Shown: positions 32,703 to 50,769 of the stretch, piece after piece
Layout: each line of letters opens with the position of its first letter
Position numbering within the stretch: the first letter of the stretch is position 1
Assembly (NCBI GenBank): GCA_963675595.2
Contig: CAXXLZ010000002.1
Coordinates: forward strand, 4,666,253-4,730,252
Source of the DNA: Thermodesulfobacteriota bacterium
GTDB lineage: Bacteria; Desulfobacterota; Desulfarculia; JACQYL01
Reading direction: 5' to 3'
DNA: 64,000 nt
Program-made: the position numbers and the translations under genes
Notes under the pieces: model-generated
The model's database searches: none
Told to the model about the DNA's origin: nothing
The model's input: only the letters and a program-made list of their open reading frames with translations

Positions 32703-34573
32703 TAAACCTTTATAAATTCGTTTTTCAAAGCTTCAAGCTTCCTTCCTATGACTCCGCTATTTCCAATACCTCTAAAATACTCCGTGAGAAGTGGTTCAAG
32801 GCGGCAAGTCCAAAAAGAGTTGATGTACGATTTAATTCCGCCAGGACCAGAATATTCGCCTACTGCTTTCATATAAGCGTGACCAATCATATAATGAGGA
32901 CCAAGCAAAGGTTCCTCGGAAATTCTTTCATTTAATCGCTTTAAACTCTCACAGAATTTCGTTATGAAATCTTCAGGAATATGATTCTCGGTCATAATTT
33001 GTCTGGCGGCAAAAAGATCAGGTTTTACTTCAATCCATCGAAACCTGCGCCGAAGTGCGAAATCGAAACTTTCGACGCTCCGATCTATTGTATTCATCGT
33101 GCCATATAGATATAAATTGTATGGAATAAAAAAGTATTCTTTGTCGTCTATAATGAGAAATGAAGATTTGTCAAAATTTCCGCCGTCATGCATAGCTGAA
33201 TATTGTGTCTCGATTTTATGTGATGCCCCCCTATATTCTAATGAATACATTAACTCACCGAATACTCTGGAAAGTTCTGCTCGGTTGATTTCATCTATAA
33301 TAAAAAAATAGGGTGGAAGAAGATTTATTAGTTTTTCGTCATTTTTAATATCATCATTTTCAGTAATGAATCTCCATATCTCTGAGGTAATCTTTTTGTC
33401 TTTAATGTTGTCCTTAATATCTGAAACTGTTGTCTTCTCTTCAAGGGGTTGTCTTGTGGCATTATAATAATCGATTTCCCAGGTAGCAGCTTTTTTACAG
33501 AACTTCTTGAATACTCCTTCTACTAAACCCAACTTTATGTTACCATTTTGAGAGCTTGTAGGTCTTATTCCCTCAACAAAATCTTCATATCCGAATGATG
33601 GATGAAACTGAATTAAAGAGCTAAATTCGGCAAACAGTTTATCATTTGTGTCAAGCTTAGGTTTGAAAGTTTTGTTATTGTTGTGCCATGATATTATTTT
33701 GGATTTGCTTATCTCCTTCGCTTTCCAGGTTTTTCCTGTACCAGGGCTGCCGTGAAAGACAATTTGTTTATCGTCTTGAGCTAATCCTAAAGTATCATAC
33801 AGCCACCAGAAAAAAGTTGAACGGTAGTATATGTTATCGTTTTCGATGTGCAAATTGTGATGTTTAATTTGAGAGTCTAGTAATTCCAGTATATATAGGT
33901 TTGATTCAAGCCAATCCTTATTTAGTTTATCAATACCCGACCAATTAATTTGAGAAATGAAGGTGTTGTAGTGAGCTTGCGGAACTATTGTCGTACATTT
34001 ACCTGGGATACATCCTGCAATAAACCTATTAACAACTGCCGGAAAGCGATTTATATGGTTGGTTTCAGCGTAACTTTCCATCCAGTCATGGGCGTCGTTC
34101 CAAACCTGTTTTATAACAGAGTTTTTGCTGTCCTCTTTTGCTAATTTAATAGCTTTGCAAACAACTTCCCAAAATTCATCTTCTTGCATTAGCTTTTTAT
34201 AATTTTCCTTAGAAACGCCTCCTAACCCGACAGAAGCCACTCCGTTTGCGCGCTCATACCAACATTGGCTGATAAACGAATCAAAATCTTCTCCTCCCGC
34301 TTTTTCAAAGGCCGTTTGTAAGTCCTTCTTTGTTTTACCTTCGAGGTATTTTGCTGTTTGTTTGATTTTGTCGCAAAATGCGTCAAAAGCACTTACCCAG
34401 TCTTCATTAGGTCTCTCTATACAATAGTGTTGGTAAAGTTGCCCCAAATAATTCTTTAAGTTCGTTTCTTTGTCTGTTTCCACTGGATTCTCCATCAAAT
34501 GCTTAGTGCTTGTTGGGGTAGTGGTATTTTCGCAAAACATCAAGTTTTGGTGGAACCCATCTTGTGCATTCAA
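32702..34573 (-). CDS. mcrB: McrB-like AAA+ GTPase
   Basis: GSPGTGKT, QFHPSFGYEDFVEG, IIDEINR, MNTIDRS (NxxD), ALRRRF and IGHAY. Confidence 0.9.
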   Translation of the reverse strand: MNAQDGFHQNLMFCENTTTPTSTKHLMENPVETDKETNLKNYLGQLYQHYCIERPNEDWVSAFDAFCDKIKQTAKYLEGKTKKDLQTAFEKAGGEDFDSFISQCWYERANGVASVGLGGVSKENYKKLMQEDEFWEVVCKAIKLAKEDSKNSVIKQVWNDAHDWMESYAETNHINRFPAVVNRFIAGCIPGKCTTIVPQAHYNTFISQINWSGIDKLNKDWLESNLYILELLDSQIKHHNLHIENDNIYYRSTFFWWLYDTLGLAQDDKQIVFHGSPGTGKTWKAKEISKSKIISWHNNNKTFKPKLDTNDKLFAEFSSLIQFHPSFGYEDFVEGIRPTSSQNGNIKLGLVEGVFKKFCKKAATWEIDYYNATRQPLEEKTTVSDIKDNIKDKKITSEIWRFITENDDIKNDEKLINLLPPYFFIIDEINRAELSRVFGELMYSLEYRGASHKIETQYSAMHDGGNFDKSSFLIIDDKEYFFIPYNLYLYGTMNTIDRSVESFDFALRRRFRWIEVKPDLFAARQIMTENHIPEDFITKFCESLKRLNERISEEPLLGPHYMIGHAYMKAVGEYSGPGGIKSYINSFWTCRLEPLLTEYFRGIGNSGVIGRKLEALKNEFIKV

Positions 34574-34592: not shown

Positions 34593-36308
34593 TCATTCTT
34601 TTGCTAAGAGATCAAGCACACTGTTATCAACAATAATCTCCAAACAAGCCCTCCGGTCCTGCGTGATCCGATCCATGGACTCATCCATTTGGACGAGCAG
34701 CTCTTCCACGATATCGGCCATGGCGTCTTGAAGGTCTTCGAAGGATTCAATGCCTTGCCGGAATCGATCGACAATGCGCTCTACGGCAAGCGGGAGCAGG
34801 CCGAAGTTGTTGGAATCCGACATATGTTCGATATCCGCGATCCTGTCCAGAAACCATGCTGCCTGGGGAGCGAGGGGAGTTAGAATCGCCGTGTCGGCGC
34901 GATAGGTCATCTCAGGGTCGTTGGTGATGATGACCCCGAGGCTCGCCCATTCGGGAGCCGGATAAGATTCCGAACTCCTCCTCCCCCAGACTTCCCCTTC
35001 AAGGGTATTCAAGGCTTTGATCATTCGGACGCCGGCTTGCTCATCACCGCTCAATTCCTTCTCTTCCCGCAAGGAGTGCTTTCCGACCTCGTCTTGAACG
35101 ATTTTGACCATCGTCTCTTTCAATTGGGAGCGTATTAAATCCTTACTACCTGCGGTGATCGCTTGGTCTAGGATCCTGGCCAGAATCTCCTCCCGTTTGG
35201 CCTTCAGGCAATCCACCAATTCATGAGCGTCGGCGGGTCCCGTTGTGATGTCTCCTCCGAATAGTCCCTCCCTGACGTCGTTCAGCGCCTGATTGAAGAG
35301 CCTTCGATGGTCCGCCATACCGGAGCGCACGGATTCATTCGAAGGAAGATCGCTCCGAACCCCATGGTCGGATAGGTCGGACCTTTGGGAACCCTTGAGC
35401 CAAGCGCAACAATCCTCTTTCACTCGGTTGAAGTCTTCCCAGGTCACCCATCCCAGTCTTTGAGGGATGGTACTCAGTCGTTGGGAATCCCCCATTCTGT
35501 GCGGAAGGTCTCTCATCAATGCATCCAAGCCGCTCTTGTACTCCTGGAATTTGTACCAGTAGAGCCTTGTCCCGTGATGCTCGCGAAAGTAATCCGGAGT
35601 GATCAAAGCAAAGAGGCTGAGTTCCGGGTCCCTGGCTCTCAAGGCCGGGTGCAGTTCATTTTCATTATTATCCTCCAGCATGACGTCGATGTTCCGGGCC
35701 ATCTGGTTCCGGTTGACGCAGTAGGTGATCATATAGGAGATGTCCGATAAGACCTTGGCTTCAAAGAGCACCGCAAAACCGTTATCCTGGTTAACGAGCA
35801 GTGCGTCCACATTGGTAGCGCCCTCAAGGTTCGCCTTGTGGCAGGTCCGGCCGTCCCAACCGGCGGCATCCAGAATATACGGAATGAACTGATGATCGCC
35901 GAGTAGCTTTCCCATCCATTTTTTGTACGTTGCCGGAGATGGAAGATTGGCTTCAAAGAACAGATGCAGATCACCGTTCAAGCATTCTTCCCAACCCATA
36001 CCGGAAGTGGGATGCCGGCATCCGAAAGCACCTTGGAGCAACTCCCCAAAAAGACGTTCCCGGTTCGGAGAGTGGTAAAGACCCATCAGTGCGGACACCG
36101 TCCAAAACTGCTCGTCCTTCTCCACCTGGCACGAGACTTTCAATTTGTCCAAGGCGAGACCTTTCCGGTCTTCCGATTCAACGGGTGCGAGGGCATATCG
36201 CTCCAAGCTTGCCTTGTAGCGGTTCACATGCTTGGACGCAGTCTGGACATCCACAAAATGCTGTTTCAGCTGATCCTCGGAAAACGGCAGGTAAACAGGG
36301 TGCAACAT
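34593..36308 (-). CDS. Hypothetical protein with N-terminal PD-(D/E)XK-like nuclease domain
   Basis: EGATNVDALL...VLFEAKVLSD...NQMARN. Start at MLHPVY with an AGGAG RBS. Acidic helical C-terminal half. Confidence 0.6.
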   Translation of the reverse strand: MLHPVYLPFSEDQLKQHFVDVQTASKHVNRYKASLERYALAPVESEDRKGLALDKLKVSCQVEKDEQFWTVSALMGLYHSPNRERLFGELLQGAFGCRHPTSGMGWEECLNGDLHLFFEANLPSPATYKKWMGKLLGDHQFIPYILDAAGWDGRTCHKANLEGATNVDALLVNQDNGFAVLFEAKVLSDISYMITYCVNRNQMARNIDVMLEDNNENELHPALRARDPELSLFALITPDYFREHHGTRLYWYKFQEYKSGLDALMRDLPHRMGDSQRLSTIPQRLGWVTWEDFNRVKEDCCAWLKGSQRSDLSDHGVRSDLPSNESVRSGMADHRRLFNQALNDVREGLFGGDITTGPADAHELVDCLKAKREEILARILDQAITAGSKDLIRSQLKETMVKIVQDEVGKHSLREEKELSGDEQAGVRMIKALNTLEGEVWGRRSSESYPAPEWASLGVIITNDPEMTYRADTAILTPLAPQAAWFLDRIADIEHMSDSNNFGLLPLAVERIVDRFRQGIESFEDLQDAMADIVEELLVQMDESMDRITQDRRACLEIIVDNSVLDLLAKE

Positions 36309-36655
36309 GATCTTCTCCTTTCCTGATGAAAAAGTCAGCCGACTCTTGGTCTCATTTCCCTGCATCGAACAAAAGCATGTTCATGCACTTTCGGGTGGTA
36401 TCTCTTGAGCCATGCCGTCCGGTAGCCCATCAGGGTCTAGGCGATGTAGTGATTCTTCACCGCCAGGGTTCCGGCGTACTTAACAAGCAGGTCCCAGAGC
36501 CTTGCGCTTTCGTCTTCCTGAACGCGACTCTTTCGAGAAAGATCGAGAGAGAGATCAACCCGTGGCCTATCGATTTTAGTTCCCTTTCCGGCTCCGAAGT
36601 TTGAAGCCTACCATGCACATCAAATACGAGAACAACTTCAAGAGCCTCTGCGTCA

Positions 36656-36687
36656 AGGATAGATCGGTATAGTTCCAGATTCCGGAA
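36656..36687 (-). promoter_or_regulatory. Shared promoter motif, copy 1
   Basis: TTCCGGAATCTGGAA-N11-TATCCT on the minus strand. Confidence 0.65.
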
Positions 36688-36894
36688 TGATTGATTCTGC
36701 CGTCAGTTTTTTTCTGGGAATGTTATTGGGCGCCCACTGTAAAAGGAATGGGACAAAGCCATCGCCGGCCAGTGTCCGCTCAGATACCTTGAGGCGAAGG
36801 AGGATTTGTCGTGAACACAAAGAGCCCGCGGGTGATCAAGTGGGTTTCTTAATCCATTCAGCCGCGGACTCCGGATTGCGTCAGCATCATTAAT

Positions 36895-37431
36895 TCATTG
36901 CGAAGCCAACAAAAACTTGCCGGTCCCCCGGGTCTGCATCCAAGGGATGTTGAGCACCCCCGGTTCGGCATAAGTTTTTAATCCGGGACCTCCGTCTTCA
37001 CCGATCCACACGGACTCTCTCCTGGAGAGGACCAGGCACACTTTGAACCGCTTTGTCCGCGCAAAGTCACGGGCATATTGGATGGCATCCTCTTCCGTGG
37101 TCACGGACTCGGGCAAAGACCGCTCCTGGTAGACTGCGGGCATAAGCCTGACGATCAACACCATGGGAACCGGCTCGTCGACCCAGGCCTCCCAACCGGC
37201 CCGGTCTTTTCGTTGCGCGCCCAGAACTTCATCGGTGTCGATCTCAAGCCCTTCGATCAGCTTGGCAACCAGTTCCTCGGACGCTACGCCTTCCCGCTCA
37301 AAACGAAAGATCCGAGTGGAGCCTTTGGATCGATTCTTATATCCGATCCTTTCCGCCAATTCGGCGGAACGAAGGCCGGCGGCTTCACGCTTTTCTCTCA
37401 ACAGGCTGCGGAGATGTTTGTTGGTTCCCAT
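36895..37431 (-). CDS. XRE-family HTH protein with uncharacterised C-terminal domain
   Basis: LREKREAAGLRSAELAERIGY...IFRFEREG. Confidence 0.7.
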   Translation of the reverse strand: MGTNKHLRSLLREKREAAGLRSAELAERIGYKNRSKGSTRIFRFEREGVASEELVAKLIEGLEIDTDEVLGAQRKDRAGWEAWVDEPVPMVLIVRLMPAVYQERSLPESVTTEEDAIQYARDFARTKRFKVCLVLSRRESVWIGEDGGPGLKTYAEPGVLNIPWMQTRGTGKFLLASQ

Positions 37432-37617
37432 TTGACTTCCCGCGAATATCGAAAAAGGAACGGTTAAGTTGCAAAATTCTGATTATTTTATTGAAGATAC
37501 GGCAAAGACATCCTTATCCCAGGAGAATGACTATCCTGAATATGAAGGCCCGCAGGCGTTCAAGCCGTTTCTCAATGCCTTCCGGCCCACGGCTCGAAAG
37601 CCGTTCAAGATCAATTC

Positions 37618-37700
37618 AATTCATTTCGAAGACCACATGAATTTGCCGGAACCCCATTTCAGCATAAGTTCTTAATCCGGGCCCCGTCTTCACCGTTCCA
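37618..37700 (-). pseudogene. Degenerate second copy of the 3' end of the XRE gene
   Basis: Two blocks align to 36892-36929 (30/38 identical by my count) and ~36964-37008, separated by an internal deletion. Confidence 0.6.
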
Positions 37701-37720
37701 GATGGAGGCTCTCTTGAAAG

Positions 37721-38392
37721 CTATTCGGCGATTATACGCCTGCAGCTTTCGGCATCTCCACTGAACCGCATGATCTTATCCCCCTTTGACAGCGCCTGAT
37801 CCACGGGGGTGTCCTTTAGCAGAGCAGCTACGGGGTGTACGATTTGATTCTTAAGATCGTCGACTGTATTCAGCCCAGCCAGCGGAACGCTGAAGACCCA
37901 TGCGGTTTCGGGATCGCTCTCTTCGCTCTCCCAGATTAACCTCCAAAGCTTATCAGCCTCCAGATGAACGTGCAACGTAGAACCACATGTATCCACCATC
38001 GCCATGGGTGGAAGCCCAAATTGATCTACTCCCCATTCGCTTTCCGCAAACATCACGTGAACGACAGCCTCGTCAATCCCCACAGCATGAAGATCTTCAT
38101 CACCGAGACATACCTGGATGCCGAGATATCCAAAAGGACTTCTGCCATTCTTAATCAATTTATATTGATAAAGATAGGCTTGGCAGAGCCAATTCATTGG
38201 GTCATTTCGATACGCCTCCTCCTCATCAGATAACTTAATACCTACGTTCAGCTTGACAAGCCCTTCTTCTCCTAAACTACTTTGCAAGGTATCCTGCAAT
38301 TCCTCCATCATGGCTTCTATTTCTTTTGCCGTCTTGGCGATGACCAATGATGCATTAAAAATGCTTGTTCCTGCTTCCCTTTCGGTGACCAT
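37721..38392 (-). CDS. Hypothetical protein
   Basis: 223-aa ORF with a GGAGG RBS. Confidence 0.65.
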   Translation of the reverse strand: MVTEREAGTSIFNASLVIAKTAKEIEAMMEELQDTLQSSLGEEGLVKLNVGIKLSDEEEAYRNDPMNWLCQAYLYQYKLIKNGRSPFGYLGIQVCLGDEDLHAVGIDEAVVHVMFAESEWGVDQFGLPPMAMVDTCGSTLHVHLEADKLWRLIWESEESDPETAWVFSVPLAGLNTVDDLKNQIVHPVAALLKDTPVDQALSKGDKIMRFSGDAESCRRIIAE

Positions 38393-38433
38393 TATTCAAC
38401 CTCCCATCGAACTATTATTGGTAACTACTATTT

Positions 38434-39330
38434 TTAGAGCTTGACATTCGATTCTACCCAAAACAGCCTAAGTTGCGTTCTCAAGGATATCTTGGGATTA
38501 TGACATAGACTTCTTCTAAAACCACTTCTTTTATGCCAAAAAAGAGGAAAATTCAGCTTGGAATAGCATTCAAATATATTAGCATTATGCCTAAAACCTT
38601 TAAATTCGGGACGATGCCAGAATAATTGTTTATCAGTAGTGATATCATTTATGATTTCTGTGGGAACAGCGCCCAAAAATCCGGAGAATACATGTATCCC
38701 TCCAGTTTTGTTCAGAAATTCAATAACATTATCTCTCCATAACTTTAGATAATTATCCTGCTTTACTTCTTTTAAGTATTTGGAAAACTCATACCATGTA
38801 AGCGCAGATATCCTTGCTGCCCAATGCTTAACATCAAAACGATAATTATCGACTTCGGCCATTTTGATATGATACATCATATCTTCTATAACGGAAATGC
38901 CCTTTCGGTCTCCAAGATAGATATGAAAAGAAAGCTGTTTATCGCAATCATCAATACATTGCCATTGGTCTGCCAACTGGTATCTTCCAGTCTCCTTGTC
39001 AATCATTTGTGACCCATTTTCCCATTTGATCTCTATAATTACGCTCGATACAAGTTCATCGTTGAGGTAGAATTTTAGAAATAGGTCGGGTTCACACCGT
39101 CCTTTGTCGGCAATGTTCGGCCAAAGTTGCACAACTACACCGTTAGGGCTTAACCCTTCCAGGGTAGCAGATATCTTCATTCCCTTCTTCTTCAGAATGG
39201 TTAGGATTAGCCTCCAGAGGTCTTCTGCAATATAGGTCCCTGGAAACAGAGACAACGGTCCAAAAATCGATGACGTGACGGTGTTCTCCTTGCCAGGCTT
39301 CTTTCCCTTTCTAACTACAGCCAAAAGCAT
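38434..39330 (-). CDS. Hypothetical PD-(D/E)XK-like nuclease
   Basis: ENTVTSSIFGPL...EPDLFL...IIEIKW...QLADQW. AT-rich. Confidence 0.6.
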   Translation of the reverse strand: MLLAVVRKGKKPGKENTVTSSIFGPLSLFPGTYIAEDLWRLILTILKKKGMKISATLEGLSPNGVVVQLWPNIADKGRCEPDLFLKFYLNDELVSSVIIEIKWENGSQMIDKETGRYQLADQWQCIDDCDKQLSFHIYLGDRKGISVIEDMMYHIKMAEVDNYRFDVKHWAARISALTWYEFSKYLKEVKQDNYLKLWRDNVIEFLNKTGGIHVFSGFLGAVPTEIINDITTDKQLFWHRPEFKGFRHNANIFECYSKLNFPLFWHKRSGFRRSLCHNPKISLRTQLRLFWVESNVKL

Positions 39331-39454
39331 AATTGACCTCTCTTTGCGGTTGAAAGGTATGCACCCTTGATTAACTATTCACCTGAAATAGCTGCACAAA
39401 TCTCTCTTGCGTACAACATGGGAGAGGGCACCAGAGCTTTCAGGCTGCGGCTTT

Positions 39455-39823
39455 TTACTCATATACGGCCATCCAGTTCATGCAGTCTTCAAAAAGCCCA
39501 TCGACTTTCTCGACTCCGGCTCTAATGAGAAGCATTTCCTCAACATAACGTCTTCCGGTGTGATGGCCGGTCCAGATCCCCTCAGTCAGTACGGTGTGGT
39601 ACTCGGGGCGGTGCGCCGCCTTGATGAGCTCGCGAGTATTCTCCAGGTTCTCTTCCTTCTCGGCGCTGATTCTGCTCTCGTCATCGTCGGCATCCGAAAT
39701 TCGATAGCCGGAAATCAACAGCATTGCGGTCTTATCCCAATCTTTCCAGATTCGTGCGAGGCCGACACGTTTGATTCGGAAAGTCTGGATGAAATCCTTC
39801 CTTATTTCAATGGCCCTTTGCAT
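39455..39823 (-). CDS. Hypothetical protein
   Basis: 122-aa ORF co-oriented with its neighbours. Confidence 0.5.
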   Translation of the reverse strand: MQRAIEIRKDFIQTFRIKRVGLARIWKDWDKTAMLLISGYRISDADDDESRISAEKEENLENTRELIKAAHRPEYHTVLTEGIWTGHHTGRRYVEEMLLIRAGVEKVDGLFEDCMNWMAVYE

Positions 39824-40096
39824 AGGAATTTCTCGTTGACGGCAAATGCTGTGGATTAATCCTTTTGTCTTTCCCTGACAATCCTATCCATCGCCCCCAG
39901 AACCCTCATACCTACCGATATCCCTCCCGGAAATCCTGTTTCGGGATCCGTGATATTGATCCGAATGAGACGATGCCAAGCGTGTTGAGAACAAAATTCC
40001 TCTCATTGTCTTGCAAGGCTCGGAGTCCCGAGCCCGATACTGCATTCCAAACCGAAGGCGTTGAAGCCGGCTCTCGGTCGAGCCAATCCGTTTCCG

Positions 40097-40444
40097 CTAG
40101 ACGGGTTCCACCGTAGTTTTCTTGATGGCGTACTGGAACACTTTGTAGAAGTAGATCAAGTACGCGAATCCCAAAGTGATGATTGAAAGGATGAACCAGA
40201 TGATGGCGTGGCCGATCTGACTCCCCAAATCCAGGTCGCATTTCAACCGGCCGACCCGACGACCCTGGGCGTCCACCAGGTAGGTCTTGTTGATGACCGT
40301 CTTGGTGAAGGCGTAGGGAAACAGGAACGCTCCGAACCCCAACGTGACCACCATGATGATGAACCACAGAATCACATGCCCCAGGGCGCCCGTAGCGTCC
40401 AGGTCCGTATCCAACTTCTTGATGCTGAAATCATTCATTTCCAA
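40097..40444 (-). CDS. Small membrane protein (YjgN/DUF898-like)
   Basis: Two repeated units, LWFIIMVVTLG and IWFILSIITLG. GGAGG RBS. Confidence 0.7.
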   Translation of the reverse strand: MEMNDFSIKKLDTDLDATGALGHVILWFIIMVVTLGFGAFLFPYAFTKTVINKTYLVDAQGRRVGRLKCDLDLGSQIGHAIIWFILSIITLGFAYLIYFYKVFQYAIKKTTVEPV

Positions 40445-40526
40445 CCCTCCTTTTCCTTTTGTCCAATCATTGCCGACCGACCGAGATTACGGATACTCAG
40501 CTTCAACGCCTTTTCGATACGGCACG

Positions 40527-40569
40527 AACATACACCCCCAACATTCCAGATTCCGGAACGTTCCAGATT
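40527..40569 (-). promoter_or_regulatory. Shared promoter motif, copy 2 (plus an extra half-site)
   Basis: TTCCGGAATCTGGAA-N11-TATGTT on the minus strand. A second AATCTGGAA half-site is offset 17 bp upstream. Confidence 0.7.
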
Positions 40570-40792
40570 TTTTTGCCGTCCTCGAAAATCACTTTCTTGA
40601 GCCGAAAGGAAACGGCAATGAAAGTTTTTCCGAGATCGAAACCCCTTTTCAGCCTGTTCAACGCATGACGAGACTTCTCCCAGGCTATCGAGGAGAACCG
40701 ACCTTCAACCCACCCGAGAGTTCCGCCATGCAGTAAACGCGTAGCCTCCCTCAAACGCATCCCCAACTTCCACAGAGATAAAATATTTTTCG

Positions 40793-40824
40793 TTCCGTAA
40801 TCTGGAACGATCCTGTTTTATCCT
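40793..40824 (+). promoter_or_regulatory. Shared promoter motif, copy 3
   Basis: TTCCGTAATCTGGAA-N11-TATCCT on the plus strand, upstream of the tandem AAA gene. Confidence 0.7.
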
Positions 40825-40953
40825 GTTCATGGCGATGAGGATTTCAGGCCTTGCGCTCCATTTCCAGCCTCCGCCCTGATGAAGCCACAGCGCCCGGAGC
40901 GCGCCAAGGCCGGCTAATCACGCACAAAGAGACACCAATAAGGAGAACCACCC

Positions 40954-43236
40954 ATGGCGCCTTCCCGCAGGAAAAGAAGAACCGTTCTCCACGAAGGAGT
41001 GGAAACCCTCGGCTCGGATGAATGCTTCCTTCGAAAGAAGGCGATTCTCTATCTGCTGCGAATCTTGAACGGATCGGGACGATTGGACCGGGAGACGCTG
41101 GAATTTGCTTTCAAGCTTCTCGAACCGAGCCCGGAAGAGATAAAGGAATGGATGGTCAAGTATCGCGTCCTGAATCAGAAAGAACTGGAAGTTCTGACGA
41201 GAGAATCCTACGATATGTCCTATTTTGACGAACTTGACTTCGATCTGTTGGTGAAGGTCTCAACTCATGGTTCCAAGCGCTCCAAGTTGAAGCTTTTGAA
41301 GCTCCTTCAGGAGAAGCTCCTGGAGAAGGACGGTCTTCTGTGCTCACCCAGCGGGTCCAGCCTTGAAGGCGGGTTCCATGAATTCGGAAAGCTCTTCGAC
41401 CTGACACCCGAGGAAACCGAACTTTGCAGGATTCTGTTCATGTGCCAAGCCTGGGAGGCGGCTGAGGACTATTTCGAGAGACACCTGGAATGCCTCCGGT
41501 TCAGTGGGCGTAAGTACCTTGCCCATGCTTTGGACGTATCCACATCTCACCTTGACACCATGGTCTTTTCAAGGCTTTCTCAACTTGAAATCGTTGAGAT
41601 ATGGTCGAACGGATACTGGATCAAGATGGAACAGGACTATTTGATTCTGTTGCAGAAGTGCGGTCAACACGATATCGGGCGCAAAGGGTACCGACCGCTT
41701 CCTCCGAGTGACATTCCTCTCTCCAACCATATGGTTCCACAGGAGATAACGGCTCATGTCACAGGCTTGCTTTCCCGGCGGACCGACTCCCCAACGCATG
41801 TTCTCCTTTACGGCCCCTCGGGGACGGGGAAGACCTCCTATGCCAGGGGGTTGGCAAGCAAACTTCCGACCCCCGCATATGAGATTTACGCCGAAAAAGG
41901 TAAAGAATCTTCAGCAAAGCTCAACGCCGTTCTCACCTGTCTTAATTTCACGAACCAAAGCAAGGAAGGGTCAATCATCGTAGTGGACGAAGCGGACGAA
42001 ATCCTGGGAACGGAGGTTCCCTGGTTCCTCTCGGGTCGTGAAAACAAAAAAGGCAGGTTGAACCAGCTCCTGGAACGTCCGGGCATTCGCATGATCTGGA
42101 TCGTGAACAACGTTGAATCCCTTCCCGATACGATCAAACGTCGCATGGCTTTCAGCATCCGATTCCGTCCATTCAACCGAACCCAGAGGGAAGGTCTTTG
42201 GCGTTCGATCCTCACCCGAAACGATTGTTCGGATTTGATCGACAAAACGGATATGTTGGAATTGGCCTCAAGGTTCGAAGTGAGTGCGGGGGTCATCGAC
42301 ATGTCGGTCAAGAAGGCCAAGCTTGCCTGTGAGGAAAATCCTCAGGATTTCAGAAAAGCGGTTTGCCTGGCCCTTGACGCCTATATGGCCATGGGTCCGA
42401 CCGATGCTTCCTCCAAGACCCATCGGAAGTCGGAGACCGACTACTCCTTGGAGGGACTCCATACGGACCAGGGCCTCGAGCGGCTCATGGAAGACGCCCG
42501 AGCCTTCACCTGCTGCAACCCGAATCAAAGCGATGAGGTGATGGGTGGGCTGCGAATGCTGTTCCATGGTCCTCCCGGAACCGGGAAAACAGCCCTGGCG
42601 CACCATCTGGCTCGAGTGCTGGAACGTGACCTGGTTGTCCGCAGGGCCGGCGATATTCTGGACCCTTATGTGGGCATGACTGAAAGACGAATCAGGGAGG
42701 CTTTCAGGCGTGCGGAAGACGACGAGGCCGTTCTGCTCATCGACGAAGCGGATAGCCTGTTGTTTCCCAGGTCACGAGCCCAACGGTCCTGGGAAGTGAG
42801 CTTCACCAACGAACTGCTTTCCAGCATGGAAGCATACCGAGGAATTCTGATCTGCACCACCAACCGTTTGTTGGATGTGGACGAGGCCTCCGTTCGCAGA
42901 TTCACCCACAAGGTCGGCTTCGATTTCTTGGAGCCGTCCGGCAATCTGCTGTTTTATCGACGCATGCTGGAGCCGCTGGTGGTTGGTCTCATCAGCGATG
43001 AAGACATCGCCCGGATACGAGTGATTCGAGACCTGGCTCCGGGAGACTTCGCCGTGGTCAGGGACCGGTTCCGTTTCCATAAACCGGAGAGCCATTTGAT
43101 CTTGGTCGAAGCGCTGGAAAGCGAATCCCGAATCAAACGTTACCAACAGGGATCAACGGAGGTCGGCTTCCGGCCCGCTTCGCAGGCGCCCGATCTGCGG
43201 CGCCAAGAGCTTCCGTCGAATCCCGCACGTGGGTAG
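40954..43236 (+). CDS. Tandem AAA+ ATPase (two AAA modules)
   Basis: GPSGTGKT/VVDEAD and GPPGTGKT/LIDEAD...TTN...RRF. AAGGAG RBS. Confidence 0.9.
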   Translation: MAPSRRKRRTVLHEGVETLGSDECFLRKKAILYLLRILNGSGRLDRETLEFAFKLLEPSPEEIKEWMVKYRVLNQKELEVLTRESYDMSYFDELDFDLLVKVSTHGSKRSKLKLLKLLQEKLLEKDGLLCSPSGSSLEGGFHEFGKLFDLTPEETELCRILFMCQAWEAAEDYFERHLECLRFSGRKYLAHALDVSTSHLDTMVFSRLSQLEIVEIWSNGYWIKMEQDYLILLQKCGQHDIGRKGYRPLPPSDIPLSNHMVPQEITAHVTGLLSRRTDSPTHVLLYGPSGTGKTSYARGLASKLPTPAYEIYAEKGKESSAKLNAVLTCLNFTNQSKEGSIIVVDEADEILGTEVPWFLSGRENKKGRLNQLLERPGIRMIWIVNNVESLPDTIKRRMAFSIRFRPFNRTQREGLWRSILTRNDCSDLIDKTDMLELASRFEVSAGVIDMSVKKAKLACEENPQDFRKAVCLALDAYMAMGPTDASSKTHRKSETDYSLEGLHTDQGLERLMEDARAFTCCNPNQSDEVMGGLRMLFHGPPGTGKTALAHHLARVLERDLVVRRAGDILDPYVGMTERRIREAFRRAEDDEAVLLIDEADSLLFPRSRAQRSWEVSFTNELLSSMEAYRGILICTTNRLLDVDEASVRRFTHKVGFDFLEPSGNLLFYRRMLEPLVVGLISDEDIARIRVIRDLAPGDFAVVRDRFRFHKPESHLILVEALESESRIKRYQQGSTEVGFRPASQAPDLRRQELPSNPARG

Positions 43237-43389
43237 GTGTGAGCTGGAACGTTTGGGGTCCCGGCGGACGATCCGTACGTTCTATTCTTGTGGTATGACG
43301 TGTGTTGAAATAAGGCAGGATACCACAGAATAATAGTCCCGGCACCCTACAGATACGAGAATCTCAGACTTTTCGGAGGAGAGAGCCCC

Positions 43390-44397
43390 ATGCCCGAGAA
43401 AAAGGACCCCTATTCAACACCAGCCATGAAGGCCTTAGGTCTTTTTTGTCTCCTCCTGTTCAGCAGGCGGAAGTATTCATTGAGCAAACTGGCCGATGAC
43501 CTTAAATGTTCGAAGCAGACCGTGATTCGATATGTGGAACAGCTCCAATTGATCCACAACATTAAGATCGAAACATGGACGCAAGGGCGGGAAAAGTATT
43601 ACCGAGCTCGGCCACCCCGTGGAGCGTTCAACGTGACGTTGGATCCTGAACAAATTCATCATCTGCTGCTTTGCCGTGACCTGGTCTGGAATCTTCTTCC
43701 CGATTCCCTGCGAAACGGGATCAGCGAAACGATCAGAAAGGCGACTGCGCTGCTTCCCGATGATGCCGTATTGGACGAGCTTCCGGAAAAATGCGCATGG
43801 GCCCGGCCCAAAGGAGCCATCGATTACTCCGGGAAGCAGGACATCTTCCAGCGACTCCTCGCCGCCATGAAGGATCATCAGGTCTGCAAAATCCGTTATG
43901 CCAAGCCGGGCCAGGAACAACCGGCCACCCACTACGTGGCCCCTTTTCGTTTGATGCTCTCCGGTGAATGCGTCTACGTCCTGGCCTGGTATTTATGGGA
44001 AGACGCCGTTCCCGACGACCCGCACAAAATGACTTTGGCCCTCCACCGGGTGGTTTCCGCGGAAACGACGGAACGCAAATACGAGAAGAAGGACTTCCTG
44101 GACGAGCAGTCGATTCGTTTCGGACTCATCGATGGGGAGCCTTTTCAGGTCCGGGTGGCCTTTCGTCCCAGTGCGGCCGTTTACATCAAGGAGCGTAACT
44201 GGAGCGAGGGACAGCAAATGGTTCCCCAACCCGACGGCGGCGTCATTCTGGAATTCACCGCCACGAGCCGACTCGAAGTGCTTTCCTGGGTATTAGGTTT
44301 CGGTCCCCAGGCCGAACTCCTGGAACCGGAAGATCTCAGGTCTGAAATCCGTTCGTCGATAAAGGACATGTCCGTCCTATATGGTGAACCTGAATAG
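43390..44397 (+). CDS. WYL-domain transcriptional regulator 1 (HTH-WYL-WCX)
   Basis: N-terminal LADDLKCSKQTVIRY HTH, VAPFRL...VYVLA and WVLGFGPQAELLEPEDLR. Confidence 0.9.
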   Translation: MPEKKDPYSTPAMKALGLFCLLLFSRRKYSLSKLADDLKCSKQTVIRYVEQLQLIHNIKIETWTQGREKYYRARPPRGAFNVTLDPEQIHHLLLCRDLVWNLLPDSLRNGISETIRKATALLPDDAVLDELPEKCAWARPKGAIDYSGKQDIFQRLLAAMKDHQVCKIRYAKPGQEQPATHYVAPFRLMLSGECVYVLAWYLWEDAVPDDPHKMTLALHRVVSAETTERKYEKKDFLDEQSIRFGLIDGEPFQVRVAFRPSAAVYIKERNWSEGQQMVPQPDGGVILEFTATSRLEVLSWVLGFGPQAELLEPEDLRSEIRSSIKDMSVLYGEPE

Positions 44398-44473
44398 GTG
44401 TTATCCTTGGCTAAACCCGCAGCTTTGGGACTCTTGCCGGCGTGTGGGTTCAAAGGATGATAGACCTTCCTTT

Positions 44474-44585
44474 CCACTTCCCCTCGATGATCCTTGGAGC
44501 GTCTCCGGGGTCGGACATGACATACACCCATGCGAATTCGTCCCCAGCTTCGGTTCGGACCCGCACGATCCGACGCTCAAATAGA
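44474..44585. repeat. 112-bp perfect direct repeat, copy A
   Basis: Identical to 46370-46481 (CCACTTCCCCTCG...GCTCAAATAGA). Confidence 0.92.
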
Positions 44586-44612
44586 TTGGAAGAGTCCCGA
44601 AGTACACATAGT

Positions 44613-46121
44613 TCACGGACTATCATTTGCCACTTCGATAAGCGCCTCAATAAGCTTTGCCTCCGCTTCGGTATCCAGACCACAGTATTGTTCGAGGGCC
44701 TGCCGAACCTTTTGTGATTCCGTCTCTTCTGGGTCGGAGGTGCTTATTCTCAGAAATTCCAGACTCGCTGTCTGCCCGTCGGCGATTTCCAATCCATCAT
44801 ATGTTTCATTCGTCAGGGCGGGCAGCACGGCTTTGAGTGAAGCACTTCCGTGCTGGGCCGGGTGATAGTAGTGAAAGGATCTGAAAGGGGCCAGCAGATC
44901 GACCAGACGGGGCACTAAGTCCCCGTATATCCACTCGGCGTATACAGGGAATGCCTCGGCGCATTCGGTGAGGATGCGCTTCTCGAAGGCGGAATTGTAC
45001 ACCACTATGGAGCCTTCGCTTCCGATAGTCTCTTTGAGTCTCCGCAGAAATTCAGGTCTTGGGTCGGGTCGTCCTCTTCGCATTTCGGCCAGGAACGAGT
45101 GGTGCTTCAGGCTCGATCCCGGAGTTTCCTGTACATGAACAGAAAACTGAAAAGGAACTTGATCGTAGGGCCGCAAACCGTCGAAGAGGGGTATGCCCGT
45201 CTGAAAAGTCTCAAAATCCATGTAGTAGAGCGGATATGTCGGCAGCTTGAGAAACTCTTTGATCGCTTGCCGGTCTGCATGGGCGAGGCCGGTTCGGCCA
45301 CACTCCACTTGTATCCGTTGGTTCGTAGTGAGAGGATAATCGTCCTCAATATCGCCGATGGAAAGAATGTGATCGTCCAGCAGCTCCCAGGCTTTTTTTC
45401 CGATACGAGACAAATTGAATACGTGGTTTTCCGGGAGAAAGGCCCAGCACAAATGCTGCATGGGGCATTCGTACGGATTATTGCAGTGAGGACCAATCTT
45501 CACTTGGGGCGGTTCAGAATCGGACCCCAGAACAAAGAACAACCGATGTAATGCGTCCTCCACCCCCTCCAAGTAGGGTTGGATTTCCAGGGTAAGGTCT
45601 TTCATGCCGAAAAGGGCCTTTGGGTCAATATCTCCATGTCGCACGTATTCCCGCGATAGGTGCATCAGCGAACAGGTGCGAATGTTAACGCCTGCGCCCT
45701 CGGCAACGTAGCGCTGAAAGGCGATATCCGGCAGGTGCACATCCTTCTCCTGAGTGGAGCTCTTGACCTCGATCAGGTCCCATTCGTTGTCCGCCACAGG
45801 GACAAGGACATCCGCCCGCATCATCACAGGTCCAAAAGGCGAGTCATGAGCGAAGGTAGCTTCAAAAATCGTCTTCCCGGCCTTAATGAGCTCTTGGGTT
45901 CTTTCGACCGCAGAGTTGAGCCCGTCATCCCATGGAACCTCAACACCTTCCGGGAAAAGCTTCTTTGCGTATTCTCCTACCAGGCTTCCCTCACTGAATC
46001 TCGCTTTGGTTCCCTGATCTTCCGCGGGGATGTCTTCGGGCCGGTGAATCTGGTACCAAAGCCATTTCGAGCATTGGCAGCCGACGAGATACTTGCTTTT
46101 GGAAATAGCGAAAAGCTTCAT
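44613..46121 (-). CDS. DUF2779-domain protein (Cas4/RecB-like nuclease plus RNase H-like domain)
   Basis: ISKSKY...QC.KWLW, ADVL...LIEVKSST, C...ECP...C, MDFET, PFQFS, SLKAVLP and YCGLDT. Confidence 0.85.
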   Translation of the reverse strand: MKLFAISKSKYLVGCQCSKWLWYQIHRPEDIPAEDQGTKARFSEGSLVGEYAKKLFPEGVEVPWDDGLNSAVERTQELIKAGKTIFEATFAHDSPFGPVMMRADVLVPVADNEWDLIEVKSSTQEKDVHLPDIAFQRYVAEGAGVNIRTCSLMHLSREYVRHGDIDPKALFGMKDLTLEIQPYLEGVEDALHRLFFVLGSDSEPPQVKIGPHCNNPYECPMQHLCWAFLPENHVFNLSRIGKKAWELLDDHILSIGDIEDDYPLTTNQRIQVECGRTGLAHADRQAIKEFLKLPTYPLYYMDFETFQTGIPLFDGLRPYDQVPFQFSVHVQETPGSSLKHHSFLAEMRRGRPDPRPEFLRRLKETIGSEGSIVVYNSAFEKRILTECAEAFPVYAEWIYGDLVPRLVDLLAPFRSFHYYHPAQHGSASLKAVLPALTNETYDGLEIADGQTASLEFLRISTSDPEETESQKVRQALEQYCGLDTEAEAKLIEALIEVANDSP

Positions 46122-46345
46122 CACGCTCATGCCCCTGAAACAGCTCGTTGTCACTTCAAAAAAGATGAAAATGCCCAGATACTCACTCTCGGTCCGCAAC
46201 GCACAGAATGCTCGGAATATACCTCATCCCGATCGATCGGCATAGTTCGTTTTGATCCTGATAAGGACCAAGTCAAGCGTGCCGGCGGGAATGTAGCGCC
46301 TCCTTATGCTTTCGTATCATCATATTTGTCCAAGGTGAACGCGGG

Positions 46346-47242
46346 TCACGTGTTCTTAGATATTCCACGCCACTTCCCCTCGATGATCCTTGGAGCGTCT
46401 CCGGGGTCGGACATGACATACACCCATGCGAATTCGTCCCCAGCTTCGGTTCGGACCCGCACGATCCGACGCTCAAATAGAGAGGATTCACACCCATATC
46501 CGCGGAAGCCCTCGATTCCATCGAGGAAAGCGAGCAAGTCCCCGATGCGCTTCACTTGAACGAGCTCTCCGTGAACGATTTCTTCAGAAGATGAACTCAT
46601 GGACATTGCCGGGAATCCGCCCAGATCGTAGAGACGCCCGGGCGTCACTCCGTTGAGGCGTTTTTCAGGCTCTCCGAAGGTCTCCAGGAGTGCTCCTCTG
46701 GATTCACCGGACATCAGAGTCCCATAGCAGAATATCCGGTCGATCAGGTAAGGCGTATTCGCTCCCTTTTCCGCCGTCTTGTGGAGGTGTTCGATGACGC
46801 CGTGAGCATTCAATCCCCTTCTTACAATTTGGACATAATCGGGCGACGGTTTTACAAATCCCCCCCGGGAGTGAATGTCTCGGACCATATAGGTGAAGGC
46901 GTCCAACCTACCGCCGTCTTCCAGAAGACAAGTGATTTCGATCCGGGTATAAATGCCCGGGAATCCTTCTTTCCGGTCGAGCGTTGCCCGCCCATCGGGC
47001 CGAATCTCGAAGAGCACACCCGGCACCACTTGCCCGATCTCCTCGCGGATATTTAGAACACCACCGCCGCGGGTCCGGGAGAGATAATTGTATACAGGAA
47101 AAAAATCCGGCAAGAAGGCCTTCCCTACCACACCCTCGATGGGGAACTCCGTTTTTTTCCGAGCACACCACCTTTTCAGATCATCGAAGTTCAGATTGGA
47201 ACCATATCCAAAATATAGATTGTCCATCCGGCCTCCCTCCAA
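46346..47242 (-). CDS. Tandem gamma-glutamylcyclotransferase (AIG2-like) domain protein
   Basis: YFGYGSNL...LDRKEG and FCYGTL...VHGEL...LDGIEG...AWVY. Confidence 0.88.
   Translation of the reverse strand: MEGGRMDNLYFGYGSNLNFDDLKRWCARKKTEFPIEGVVGKAFLPDFFPVYNYLSRTRGGGVLNIREEIGQVVPGVLFEIRPDGRATLDRKEGFPGIYTRIEITCLLEDGGRLDAFTYMVRDIHSRGGFVKPSPDYVQIVRRGLNAHGVIEHLHKTAEKGANTPYLIDRIFCYGTLMSGESRGALLETFGEPEKRLNGVTPGRLYDLGGFPAMSMSSSSEEIVHGELVQVKRIGDLLAFLDGIEGFRGYGCESSLFERRIVRVRTEAGDEFAWVYVMSDPGDAPRIIEGKWRGISKNT
46370..46481. repeat. 112-bp perfect direct repeat, copy B (3' end of the GGCT gene)
   Basis: Identical to 44474-44585. Confidence 0.92.
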
Positions 47243-47291
47243 CAGCTAACTGCCAATTCATGCCTCAACACCAGCTTCGCATCATTCGGAA

Positions 47292-47327
47292 AGATTAGCA
47301 CGACATCATTCCAGATTTCGGAATGAT
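47292..47327 (-). promoter_or_regulatory. Shared promoter motif, copy 4
   Basis: TTCCGAAATCTGGAA-N11-TAATCT on the minus strand. The arms extend to ATCATTCC/GGAATGAT. Confidence 0.7.
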
Positions 47328-47449
47328 AGGATTCTTCTCTACCGGAGCTGAAAATAATTTGAGGGATACTTCACGTGGTCGCCGTGTCAGCCGATCACCT
47401 GAAAGGCGCGTCGCGAAATCATCACCCCCAAGAAAATTCCATCTCCTTT

Positions 47450-47466
47450 TTGTCCTGATCTGACAA
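47450..47466 (+). promoter_or_regulatory. TTGTC-N7-GACAA palindrome upstream of the ARPP-1 and WYL2 genes
   Basis: TTGTCCTGATCTGACAA. A similar site, TTGTCTTTCCCTGACAA, is at 39865-39881. Confidence 0.45.
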
Positions 47467-47506
47467 CCCCGCGGGTTACCCATTATGAAAAAAATGGAGG
47501 TGACCC

Positions 47507-48496
47507 ATGGAACCGATTCGTGAATACCTGGCGTACGTCAAGGTGGGGAAAAAGCAAGCGCATCTCAACATGACCCTCTTTCCCTTGCTGGCTCCCGACA
47601 ACGGAAAACCGGAATACCTGACCCTCGACGAGGCTCTGGAACGAGAGCAGATCGAGGTAACCGAGGTGAGCGCCTCGGGCAGTGTTCCGGAATTGAAACT
47701 GATCAATCGGGGAAAGCAACAAGTGCTGATCGTAGAGGGCGAAGAACTGCATGGAGCCAAACAGAACCGAATCGTCAACTCGACGTTCCTGGTAGACGGC
47801 TCTTGCGAGCTCGTGATCCCGGTCAGTTGCGTAGAGCAGGGACGATGGGGCTATCGATCCGAGCGATTTCGTTCCGGCGGACAAATGATGCCCCCGAGCC
47901 TCAAGCGGGCACATCAGCAAGCCGTTCGTACAAGCCTGAGACGTGATCAAGGATTTCGTTCCGATCAAAACACCTTATGGGAGCAGATATCCGCCAAAGG
48001 AGAACGTTTGCACACAGAGTCCGCCACCGGAGCCATGGCGGACATCTATCAAAAGGAGGAACCTCGTCTTTCCGAATATGAACGAGCATTTCGCTTGACG
48101 GACGCGCAGGTGGGAGCCGTCTTCGGCGTCAACGGCAAAATCCTGGGAGCCGAGTGTTTCGGATTCAAGCAAACGTTTGCCGGCTTTTTCAAAAAACTGA
48201 TCCGCAGTTACGCTCTGGACGCCATTGACTGGTTCGAGCAGGAGTCCGCTTCCAAGGCCACTGCCGAAAAGGCGAGAGCGTTCATGGAATCCGTAGGCAC
48301 CGCCGCCACCGAAGTCCGAAACTCCCTAGACTTGGGACACGATTTCAGGCTTGAATCTGATTTCCTATCCGGCTCCGCCTTGGCCTTCAATAAAAAGGTT
48401 CTGCACCTTTCGGTTTTCAAAAAGGAGAGTTCAGGCAACTCCGGGAAGGGGCATTACGATCGGTTTTCCGACAGACGTTCTCGACGGGCGCAGTAA
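47507..48496 (+). CDS. ARPP-1 (DUF6569)-like protein
   Basis: YLTLDEAL...GSVPEL...GEELHGAKQNRIVN...IPVSCVEQGRW...SDQ..LW...SYALDA. Confidence 0.8.
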   Translation: MEPIREYLAYVKVGKKQAHLNMTLFPLLAPDNGKPEYLTLDEALEREQIEVTEVSASGSVPELKLINRGKQQVLIVEGEELHGAKQNRIVNSTFLVDGSCELVIPVSCVEQGRWGYRSERFRSGGQMMPPSLKRAHQQAVRTSLRRDQGFRSDQNTLWEQISAKGERLHTESATGAMADIYQKEEPRLSEYERAFRLTDAQVGAVFGVNGKILGAECFGFKQTFAGFFKKLIRSYALDAIDWFEQESASKATAEKARAFMESVGTAATEVRNSLDLGHDFRLESDFLSGSALAFNKKVLHLSVFKKESSGNSGKGHYDRFSDRRSRRAQ

Positions 48497-48586
48497 TCTG
48501 TGAAGTTGATCCCAAAACGCGGTTCTGCTACCTATAAAGGACTCATAAACAGGATTCCCTTCTCACTTCAGCATAGGTAAGTCCGG

Positions 48587-49597
48587 ATGCGCGGTGACCA
48601 GCTGGCCAGACAATGGAGAATTCTACGGGCGATCGAAGCGGATAAGAACGGTTTGACCATCGCCGAGATCGCCGGGCAGGAGGAGATATCCCTGCGCACC
48701 GCCTACCGGGATATCGAAGCGCTGCAGGCTGCGGGATTTCCTTTATATTATGAAAGGTTCGAGGGTTCCAATCGATGGTTTTTCGTCGATAATTACAAAT
48801 TCAAGGTACCCCAGCCCTTTACCGTGACCGAATTGATGTCTCTTCACCTGTACTCTGACCTGGTGCGAGTATTCCAAGGGACACCATTCTATGAGGCACT
48901 GGAGTCGCTCTTCAAGAAGGTGCGAGTCACCCTGCCGCCCCAAGCACTCAACTATTTGAACACCATCCAATCCACCTTCCAAGTGGGAATCAAACCCTTC
49001 AAGGAATACGGCAGGTTTCGTGAGATTCTCAGCCAGGTAAATCGGGCCGCCCTTGAGTCTCTGCGTTTGGAGATCGCCTACAAGTCGCTGACCAGTGAAA
49101 CGGAAACCCTACGAAAAGTCGATCCCTACAAAGTCTGGTTTTTCGATGGGACTTTTTACTTGATCGGGCATTGTCATGTACGAGAGGAGGTCCGAACCTT
49201 CGTGCTCGACCGAATCCGAATGCTTCGGTTGACCGAGGAACACTTTGAAATTCCTCCGGACTTCAGTCTGGAGGATTACATGAAGCACAGCTTCAAAGTG
49301 ATGCAGGGAGACCTTTACACGGTCCGGATCAGGATATCCGCCGAATGGGCCCGGTACATCGGCGAGAAGATTTGGCATGAAAGCCAGAAAGCGGAAAGAC
49401 TGCCCGACGGACGTCTCGACTTGACCTTCCAGGTGGCCGGTCTCGAGGAGATCAAACAGTGGGTCCTGAGCCTGGGGCCACAAGCAGTGGTGATGGAACC
49501 CACGGAATTGATCGAGCTGGTTTTGGCCGATCTGTCCTCGGTTCGGATGCAATACGACACTGAGACTGCAATCCCTCAACGAATGAGAGAGCGCTGA
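48587..49597 (+). CDS. WYL-domain transcriptional regulator 2 (PafB/C-like)
   Basis: RTAYRDIEAL HTH, RKVDPY...FYLIGHC...RTFVLDRI and WVLSLG. Confidence 0.93.
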   Translation: MRGDQLARQWRILRAIEADKNGLTIAEIAGQEEISLRTAYRDIEALQAAGFPLYYERFEGSNRWFFVDNYKFKVPQPFTVTELMSLHLYSDLVRVFQGTPFYEALESLFKKVRVTLPPQALNYLNTIQSTFQVGIKPFKEYGRFREILSQVNRAALESLRLEIAYKSLTSETETLRKVDPYKVWFFDGTFYLIGHCHVREEVRTFVLDRIRMLRLTEEHFEIPPDFSLEDYMKHSFKVMQGDLYTVRIRISAEWARYIGEKIWHESQKAERLPDGRLDLTFQVAGLEEIKQWVLSLGPQAVVMEPTELIELVLADLSSVRMQYDTETAIPQRMRER

Positions 49598-49671
49598 AAG
49601 CCACTATTTCAAACTTGATCCCTTTGGAGATACCAATTTTTGTGGAATATTAACAGTCGGAGTCTGATCAC

Positions 49672-50715: not shown

Positions 50716-50769
50716 GCTCTATATGGCTTATCGGTAACCTTTCAATTTGGCGGCTTAGGGAGAAGATTA

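Follow-up and report, generated by a model that had tools for sequence, protein, structure and literature searches.

A 15-bp box at four probable island promoters of a Thermodesulfobacteriota bacterium, probably read by a DriD-like WYL regulator, and a separate putative box for a second WYL protein

The window analysed here is a 64-kb stretch of DNA (64,000 nucleotides) from a Thermodesulfobacteriota bacterium (assembly GCA_963675595.2, contig CAXXLZ010000002.1, positions 4,666,253 to 4,730,252 of the forward strand), which carries an island with genes for two WYL-domain regulators, WYL1 and WYL2. A 15-bp quasi-palindrome, box 1 (TTCCGnAATCTGGAA), occurs in four intergenic copies with 0 mismatches and with a TAnnnT hexamer exactly 11 nt 3' of each. 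These four sites are probably promoters at which a WYL1 homodimer activates transcription much as DriD of Caulobacter crescentus does. WYL2 has a different box of its own; therefore, the two WYL genes appear to mark two separate regulons, not one.

Sites 1 and 2 (each TTCCGGAATCTGGAA) lie on the minus strand at 36673-36687 and 40544-40558, the latter with an extra half-site immediately 5'; site 3 (TTCCGTAATCTGGAA) lies on the plus strand at 40793-40807, and site 4 (TTCCGAAATCTGGAA) on the minus strand at 47309-47323. Their hexamers are TATCCT (36656-36661), TATGTT (40527-40532), TATCCT (40819-40824) and TAATCT (47292-47297, with TG ahead of it), and the predicted transcription starts are at ~36649, ~40520, ~40831 and ~47285, respectively. 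A preliminary description of this DNA had reported four intergenic 15-bp sites, -10-like hexamers 11 nt downstream, and the motif in the region of an absent -35 consensus; the coordinates proved exact, the hexamers are in place at 4/4 sites, and a -35 element is present at 0/4. An extended -10 TG is found in one of the four. Counting flanks, the palindrome spans ~19 bp (CR on the 5' side in 4/4 sites, YG on the 3' side in 3/4), with slightly asymmetric half-sites (TTCCG vs TTCCA). Site 1 is separated from the start of its target gene by 290-347 nt, and the other three sites by 49-129 nt. No further site with at most two mismatches to the 15-mer exists in the window. Box 1 is the sole 15-mer with one free position that reaches at least four places in the window, and order-3 Markov simulations yielded at most two copies of any comparable word in 8/8 runs (four gap positions tried). 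Given a TAnnnT frequency of 0.0072 per position, hexamers at 4/4 sites would be expected by chance with a probability of ~3e-9, before allowing for the chosen spacing and orientation. A generic promoter and terminator scan of the window remained at chance level (promoters 11 vs 13.7, terminators 23 vs 20), and readings of the sites as extracytoplasmic function (ECF) or sigma-54 promoters, judged against their consensus sequences, were dropped on spacing.

Box 1 is not a host-wide site, because the exact box with its hexamer is confined to the island block and a second copy of it. The 6.8-Mb host genome contains nine exact 15-mers, seven of which carry TAnnnT at +11 (four in the window, three in the paralogous copy); the two without a hexamer sit within long reading frames (1055 and 776 aa) that contain no stop codon. 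Genome-wide, 0/15 one-mismatch sites have the hexamer, no box with hexamer was found near the single host lexA or the single recA, and the strict pattern was absent from the host genome outside the two island copies as well as from all 60 close relatives scanned. The second copy (C2:1658200-1675516 of the host genome G000; loci L001 and L002) is 96% identical to window 39442-57062 and lies in a different genomic context. It retains three box 1 sites and box 2 unchanged, and site 1 is missing. The host genome has only four WYL genes, all within the two island copies.

The association of the boxes with the two regulators was assessed in 400 genomes of the same phylum, 16 with WYL1 and 33 with WYL2. 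Box 1 was found in 10/400 genomes (a control pattern in 6), comprising 6/16 WYL1 genomes vs 4/384 others; in a seventh box 1 genome a WYL1 fragment adjoins the site. It was found in 0/33 WYL2 genomes, and occurs in seven genomes having WYL1 yet no WYL2 match. A relaxed box 1 pattern matched 11/16 WYL1 genomes vs 4/31 WYL2-only genomes (control there 9). Box 2 was found in 49/400 genomes (control 5), comprising 24/33 WYL2 genomes vs 25/367 others, the latter 25 having no WYL2 match at the threshold used; it was also present in 3/16 WYL1 genomes, two of which carry WYL2 as well. Because of this double dissociation, box 1 was assigned to WYL1 and box 2 to WYL2, and we infer that the reader of box 1 is WYL1, not WYL2 or the XRE-family protein encoded near site 1. 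The single programme around both WYL regulators envisaged in the preliminary description thus gives way to two: box 1 goes with WYL1, and WYL2 has its separate box at 47451-47465.

The arrangement of sites around WYL1 genes in other genomes points in the same direction. A box with at most three mismatches, pointing away from the gene, was present in 13/23 scorable WYL1-homologue loci (the box itself had led to one of these 13, and one additional locus was too short to score), in 12 of them at 23-35 nt from the start. Matches to the T, A and T of the hexamer at these loci reached their maximum at a spacing of 11 (34/39; next 23). Searches with the box alone recovered 26 box 1 sites, nine with TAnnnT at 11 nt and none with it at 10 or 12, and at box-only sites of both boxes at most 2/6 bases at the -35 position match TTGACA. 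A GTDB scan with a pattern taken from the window alone, and hence a non-circular test, returned 98 loci (18 with flanks of only 300 nt) that are mostly chance matches, with an estimated ~70 expected and ~90 lacking an island gene. At four of them a WYL1-clade gene (42-55%) lies 27-100 nt off on the opposite strand, and one more site precedes ARPP-1; neither XRE nor WYL2 was the best match at any of the 98 loci, the 18 short-flanked ones included. A WYL1-clade protein was encoded in 5/5 genomes chosen from the GTDB matches (three already known to have WYL1 next to the site), in two of them on a contig other than that of the site. The named relatives belong to Desulfovibrionaceae, Syntrophobacterales and other former Deltaproteobacteria. 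A metagenome scan gave four loci among 83 candidates, two of them near-identical, and none of the 17 candidate stretches from a scan of viral sequences with the WYL1 alignment contained a relative.

WYL1 (335 aa; 43390-44397, plus strand) matches the Pfam domains HTH_11, WYL and WCX and has the predicted order winged helix-turn-helix (wHTH), three-helix bundle and then WYL and WCX, with recognition helix CSKQTVxR. Its structural model has a mean predicted local distance difference test (pLDDT) score of 89.6, with linker helices at residues 86-98, 105-119 and 125-129 between the wHTH and WYL domains. Foldseek ranked DriD first (E 9e-18), PafBC next (2e-13) and CapW/BrxR lower (5e-8 to 2e-6). 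In the window, WYL1 stands in tandem behind the AAA ATPase gene of site 3, not divergent from a box, and transcription of that gene might run on into WYL1 as a positive feedback. A possible sigma-70 promoter of its own lies at 43305-43334 (TTGAAA, 18 nt, AATAAT; the parent scan was at chance level), and such a promoter might fit constitutive expression as for driD.

WYL2 (336 aa; 48587-49597, plus strand) is an HTH-WYL-WCX protein by its Pfam domains, is ~23% identical to WYL1, matches DriD with E 3e-12 and is the putative reader of box 2. In a quick tree of 55 rows, WYL1 and WYL2 separate with good support into two clades that differ in recognition helix and in the box that goes with them. 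The box 2 consensus, found ahead of ARPP-1 in WYL2 loci, is TGWCC-N5-TGWCA, 11 nt before TAnnnT. Its copy in the window (TGTCCTGATCTGACA, 47451-47465, plus strand) lies 24 nt before the start of ARPP-1 (47507-48496, plus strand), and this promoter may be weak because the hexamer at +11, TACCCA (47477-47482), is imperfect, with 2/3 key bases; its predicted transcription start is at ~47489. In six genomes, 34/55 box-2-only sites have TAnnnT at 11 nt and none has it at 10 or 12. Box 2 is widespread and multi-copy, with 25 box-only sites in genome G346, 14 in G104, and further sites in G125, G285 and 45 others; the targets seen include ARPP-1, ADP-ribosylglycohydrolase (ARG), HIRAN, DUF2779, Csm1/Cas10 and small exported proteins. 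This spread may point to a large, uncharacterised regulon.

The closest parallel is DriD. DriD shares with WYL1 the order wHTH, three-helix bundle and then WYL and WCX (PMC13004042, PMC10853764), and its sites, set at a fixed distance from the -10 element, overlap the -35 position (PMC13004042). Both systems use a 4-N7-4 pseudo-palindrome over the -35 position with 11 nt to the -10 box (15+11+6) and no -35 element; the DriD promoter oligonucleotide reads CGAC-N7-GTCG, 11 nt and CAATCT by our count, and an engineered TTGACA stands 17 nt before the hexamer (PMC13004042). DriD recruits polymerase via the beta subunit and the C-terminal domain of the alpha subunit, and activates a promoter pointing away from driD (PMC13004042). 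A divergent layout with the site pointing away from the regulator gene is likewise seen for WYL1 homologues, and several scattered promoters are served in both systems. The two differ in their boxes (CGAC-N7-GTCG for DriD vs TTCC-N7-GGAA for WYL1 and TGWC-N7-GWCA for WYL2), and WYL1 is set apart by its recognition helix, its low identity to DriD, the lack of the loop arginines that bind single-stranded DNA (ssDNA), and its location on a mobile island. The targets here are conflict genes (nuclease and McrBC, AAA, ARPP-1, DUF2779 and GGCT, with Cas3 elsewhere), unlike the cell-division and repair genes described for DriD.

By this analogy, each of the two winged-HTH domains of a WYL1 homodimer would bind one arm (TTCC or GGAA) of the 15-bp box, and the box would cover the place of the absent -35 element (about -38 to -24). 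At these activator-dependent sigma-70 promoters, the dimer would bring RNA polymerase to the -10 element located 11 nt further downstream, once an effector in the WYL/WCX pocket has broken the hold of the three-helix bundle on the HTH domains. Four units would thereby be switched on together: the nuclease gene with McrBC, the DUF6693 gene, the tandem AAA ATPase gene, and GGCT with DUF2779. WYL2 would act likewise through box 2 at ARPP-1.

Other characterised WYL systems resemble this one in part. DdaA of Moraxellaceae is a homodimeric WYL activator that acts at a 15-bp palindrome (CGWCA-N5-TGWCG) and drives restriction-modification (RM) and CRISPR genes (PMC12392091, PMC13010146), and like WYL2 it has lost one loop arginine. 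However, it is a core-genome regulator of recA, ssb and uvrA with a site ~50 bp upstream of the start and another box, whereas no box is found here at host recA or lexA. The differing boxes and the bare recA and lexA genes exclude a DriD or DdaA orthologue proper. PafBC of mycobacteria also belongs to the WYL-WCX activators and serves promoters that have TAnnnT and lack a -35 (PMC8635444, PMC6789036), but works as a heterodimer of adjacent-gene products on a non-palindromic site with a 10-nt spacer, by sigma adaptation, and needs both loop arginines. Here the site is palindromic, the spacer is 11 nt and the WYL1 and WYL2 genes are apart in most genomes, and membership of the PafBC group was rejected on these features. 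CapW and BrxR are defence-island WYL regulators that act on inverted repeats (PMC11662680, PMC9122601), but they are repressors with a helix-hairpin linker, an RWHVR motif, a longer operator downstream of the -10 element and a weaker structural match; the three-helix linker, the absence of RWHVR and the position of the site over the -35 region argue against placing WYL1 among them. The neighbourhoods described by Iyer et al. 2022 contain WYL-ARPP pairs, as here, and ARG and HIRAN genes follow the present boxes in other genomes; the available text of that study gives no DNA site and takes the WYL factors of ARG systems as repressors (PMC9503650), whereas the geometry here points to activation. 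The WYL1 system thus appears to work like DriD, without being an orthologue of DriD, DdaA or PafBC, and the earlier proposal of an island-encoded activator of the PafBC/DriD type is supported by the DriD geometry, the predicted WYL1 fold and the co-occurrence of box 1 with WYL1.

Several observations weigh against activation by WYL1 through box 1. There is no good box within 200 nt at 10/23 WYL1 loci, relaxed box 1 is unmatched in 5/16 WYL1 genomes, and three box 1 genomes have no clear WYL1. The relaxed patterns were composed after some loci were known, the six genomes used for box 2 spacing had been picked for many matches, and the co-occurrence statistics are overstated since related genomes are not independent. 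WYL1 and DriD are only 17-20% identical, and the third bundle helix (125-129) is short, with pLDDT ~68. The WYL1 clade has no equivalents of DriD R178, R204, R207 and Y240, with loop arginines in 0/25 tree rows, and a PafBC double-arginine mutant is dead, both loop arginines being required (PMC6789036). Finally, 11/13 WYL1-adjacent homologue sites have an extended -10 TG, which might let them fire with no activator present. This TG, at -15/-14, is the main point for a WYL1 that binds the box yet represses as CapW/BrxR do, blocking extended -10 promoters until an effector releases the dimer. PMC9503650 calls such WYL factors negative regulators, and conflict genes are the usual cargo of WYL repressors. 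Nevertheless, repression seems improbable: TG is present in only 1/4 window sites and 14/55 box 2 sites, with -35 in none, and a repressor has no need of an exact spacing, yet 10 and 12 are never seen. The BrxR site (11+5+11 bp) lies downstream of the -10 element (PMC9122601), and WYL1 has a DriD-like fold and linker domain, where repressor WYL proteins have a helix-hairpin in place of the three-helix bundle (PMC10853764), and lacks their RWHVR motif (PMC11662680).

Recognition of the box by another factor is less probable still. The unequal half-sites, the location of both WYL genes amid the sites in each island copy and the precedent of PafBC, a heterodimer of two WYL proteins, would fit WYL2 or a WYL1/WYL2 heterodimer as the reader, a reading made very unlikely by the distribution of box 1 (no WYL2 genome with it, seven WYL1 genomes with it and no WYL2 match), by the own box, separate clade and different recognition helix of WYL2, and by the non-palindromic PafBC site, tGTCgg(N10)tA(N3)T (PMC8635444). 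Scarcely any likelihood attaches to the XRE-family HTH protein (36895-37431, minus strand), although it is encoded 200 nt from site 1 and a homologue (65%) follows an exact box 1 (8595-8609) in metagenome locus L108: it has no match in 10/10 box/WYL1 genomes (with no positive control among these), and merely a 29-residue remnant is found near the second island copy, where three sites persist. L108 has WYL1 too (69%), and XRE is better read as a target there. The same locus also carries AAA and DUF2779 genes, and its box precedes XRE, whereas the box in the window follows it. Recognition of the sites by host LexA or by some alternative sigma factor, and a functionless repeat in place of a binding site, are ideas as remote as WYL2 or the heterodimer. 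The host does have one lexA and one recA, but neither has a box with hexamer nearby, strict matches are confined to the two island copies and absent from the 60 relatives, and the genome has no WYL genes beyond the four in these copies; a duplicated repeat is contradicted by flanks that differ among the sites. Activation by WYL1 thus remains the preferred explanation.

The signal sensed by WYL1 is less clear, and the chances for and against ssDNA as its effector seem evenly balanced. The ssDNA contacts of DriD are Y168, R178, Y192, R204, W206, R207 and Y240 (PMC10853764). According to residue mapping taken from HMMER alignments, the WYL1 clade keeps equivalents of Y168 (101/103) and Y192 (83/103), and its loop reads L-A-(V/L/I)-H-R; the lack of R178, R204, R207 and Y240 equivalents speaks against an ssDNA trigger of the kind that the preliminary description recorded for PafBC and DriD. 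WYL2 keeps equivalents of Y168, R178, Y192 and R204 and is without R207, retaining one loop arginine; DdaA functions despite the loss of one (PMC12392091), WYL2 may do likewise, and a published WYL factor senses c-di-GMP (PMC11880434). Three cysteines are near-invariant in the WYL1 clade (C40 100/103, C95 103/103, C166 94/103). A bolder and rather doubtful proposal makes WYL1 the founder of a group of DriD-like activators which have ceased to sense ssDNA and respond to another signal, so that two orthogonal circuits with the same promoter design would answer two alarms and the WYL2 box would define a phylum-wide conflict regulon. The WYL1 pocket has lost the arginines and conserves H-R, a KGxIDY motif and C40/C95/C166. 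Candidate signals, all speculative, would be a nucleotide, ADP-ribose or a damage product, or redox state.

The target of site 1 is a 590-aa open reading frame (ORF; 34593-36365, minus strand, likely start 36308) with a PD-(D/E)XK-type motif and no Pfam or NCBIfam match. Its D...E-A-K motif lies in the N-terminal ~300 aa and does not vary among the 41 relatives aligned, out of 753; the label of putative nuclease of PD-(D/E)XK type comes from this motif alignment and a weak Atlas lead (0.83-0.84). The N-terminal part (window 35400-36308) falls into a family that has no Pfam name and comprises 753 proteins of bacteria and archaea, most of which stand alone at ~300 aa; in the window this part is fused to a ~280-aa C-terminal part. 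An McrB-like gene (32702-34573) lies 3' of the ORF, followed by McrC (31254-32702). Site 2 precedes a DUF6693 small membrane protein gene (40097-40444, minus strand, likely start 40438) and a 122-aa ORF (39455-39823), site 3 a 760-aa tandem AAA ATPase (40954-43236, plus strand), and site 4 a double GGCT/AIG2-like gene (46346-47242, minus strand, likely start 47227), which is probably co-transcribed with the DUF2779/Cas4-like gene behind it (44613-46199, minus strand). The genes named earlier as lying downstream (PD-(D/E)XK with mcrBC, AAA and GGCT) were thus recovered, except that the supposed cluster of small membrane proteins is one DUF6693 gene and the 122-aa ORF. An exact 112-bp direct repeat (44474-44585 and 46370-46481), made up of the 3'-terminal sequence of GGCT, brackets the DUF2779 gene, the paralogous copy has the repeat once and no DUF2779, and this gene has been gained or lost via recombination at the repeat. 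In the second copy, GGCT is frameshifted and an insertion splits a UDG-family gene.

Homologues of the AAA ATPase lie behind box 1 in five other loci, those of DUF2779 directly after box 1 (one locus) or box 2 (two loci), and those of ARPP-1 behind box 2 (15 loci) or box 1 (six loci). Genes after the boxes in other genomes further include Cas3, metallophosphoesterase, ARG, HIRAN and Csm1/Cas10; among 40 candidate ORFs behind boxes elsewhere, 25 have no Pfam match and a few are housekeeping genes, at probable chance sites. The loci retrieved from other genomes showed no homologue of the nuclease ORF, of DUF6693 or of GGCT, and their status as targets therefore comes from the window and its paralogue. 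In three loci of WYL1 genomes (L079, L182, L183), box 1 with its hexamer lies 36-44 nt ahead of a Cas3 HD-helicase gene, which suggests that WYL1 activates CRISPR interference genes at these loci.

The host island (~54.5 kb, 6726-61227) adjoins tRNA-Asn (6650-6725) and contains genes for a large serine recombinase, PolA, type I RM, GmrSD, McrBC and AddAB-like proteins. A CARF/RtcR-type sigma-54 activator (29267-31069; PADLOC RtcR_PspF2, E 2e-198) between the McrBC and type I RM genes is an additional island sensor. Elsewhere in the assembly, G000 C1:1-25788 repeats ~24 kb of host DNA (window 1-6725 and 61227-61496) up to tRNA-Asn at 99% and island-free, and is either a duplication or one of two haplotypes. 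According to ARAGORN, the host genome also has a tRNA-Pyl (CTA; C2:125847-125918) and a tRNA-Sec (C1:971408-971505).

The class of mechanism is already known, and four boxes alone would be unsurprising. No account of box 1, box 2 or a Desulfobacterota WYL regulon was found in print, although closed journals, figures and supplements might hold them. What is added are two regulator-box pairs that a double dissociation tells apart, and the searches of print turned up no earlier WYL regulon from this phylum; the recognition sequences, and possibly the trigger, are new, and the type of switch is known. The 15+11+6 geometry shared by unrelated boxes suggests that the DriD mode of activation may be general. 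The boxes provide a search handle for uncharacterised genes (ARPP-1, tandem AAA, DUF2779, GGCT, DUF6693 and the unnamed PD-(D/E)XK family) that would be induced alongside McrBC and CRISPR genes, and make testable the published assumption that WYL factors next to ARPP and ARG genes are repressors. The altered pocket of WYL1 offers a test case for ligands besides ssDNA in these sensors. If WYL1 indeed answers to a signal other than ssDNA, the WYL2 box would expose an undescribed phylum-wide conflict regulon (ARPP-1, ARG, HIRAN, DUF2779 and CRISPR genes) formerly assumed to be repressed.

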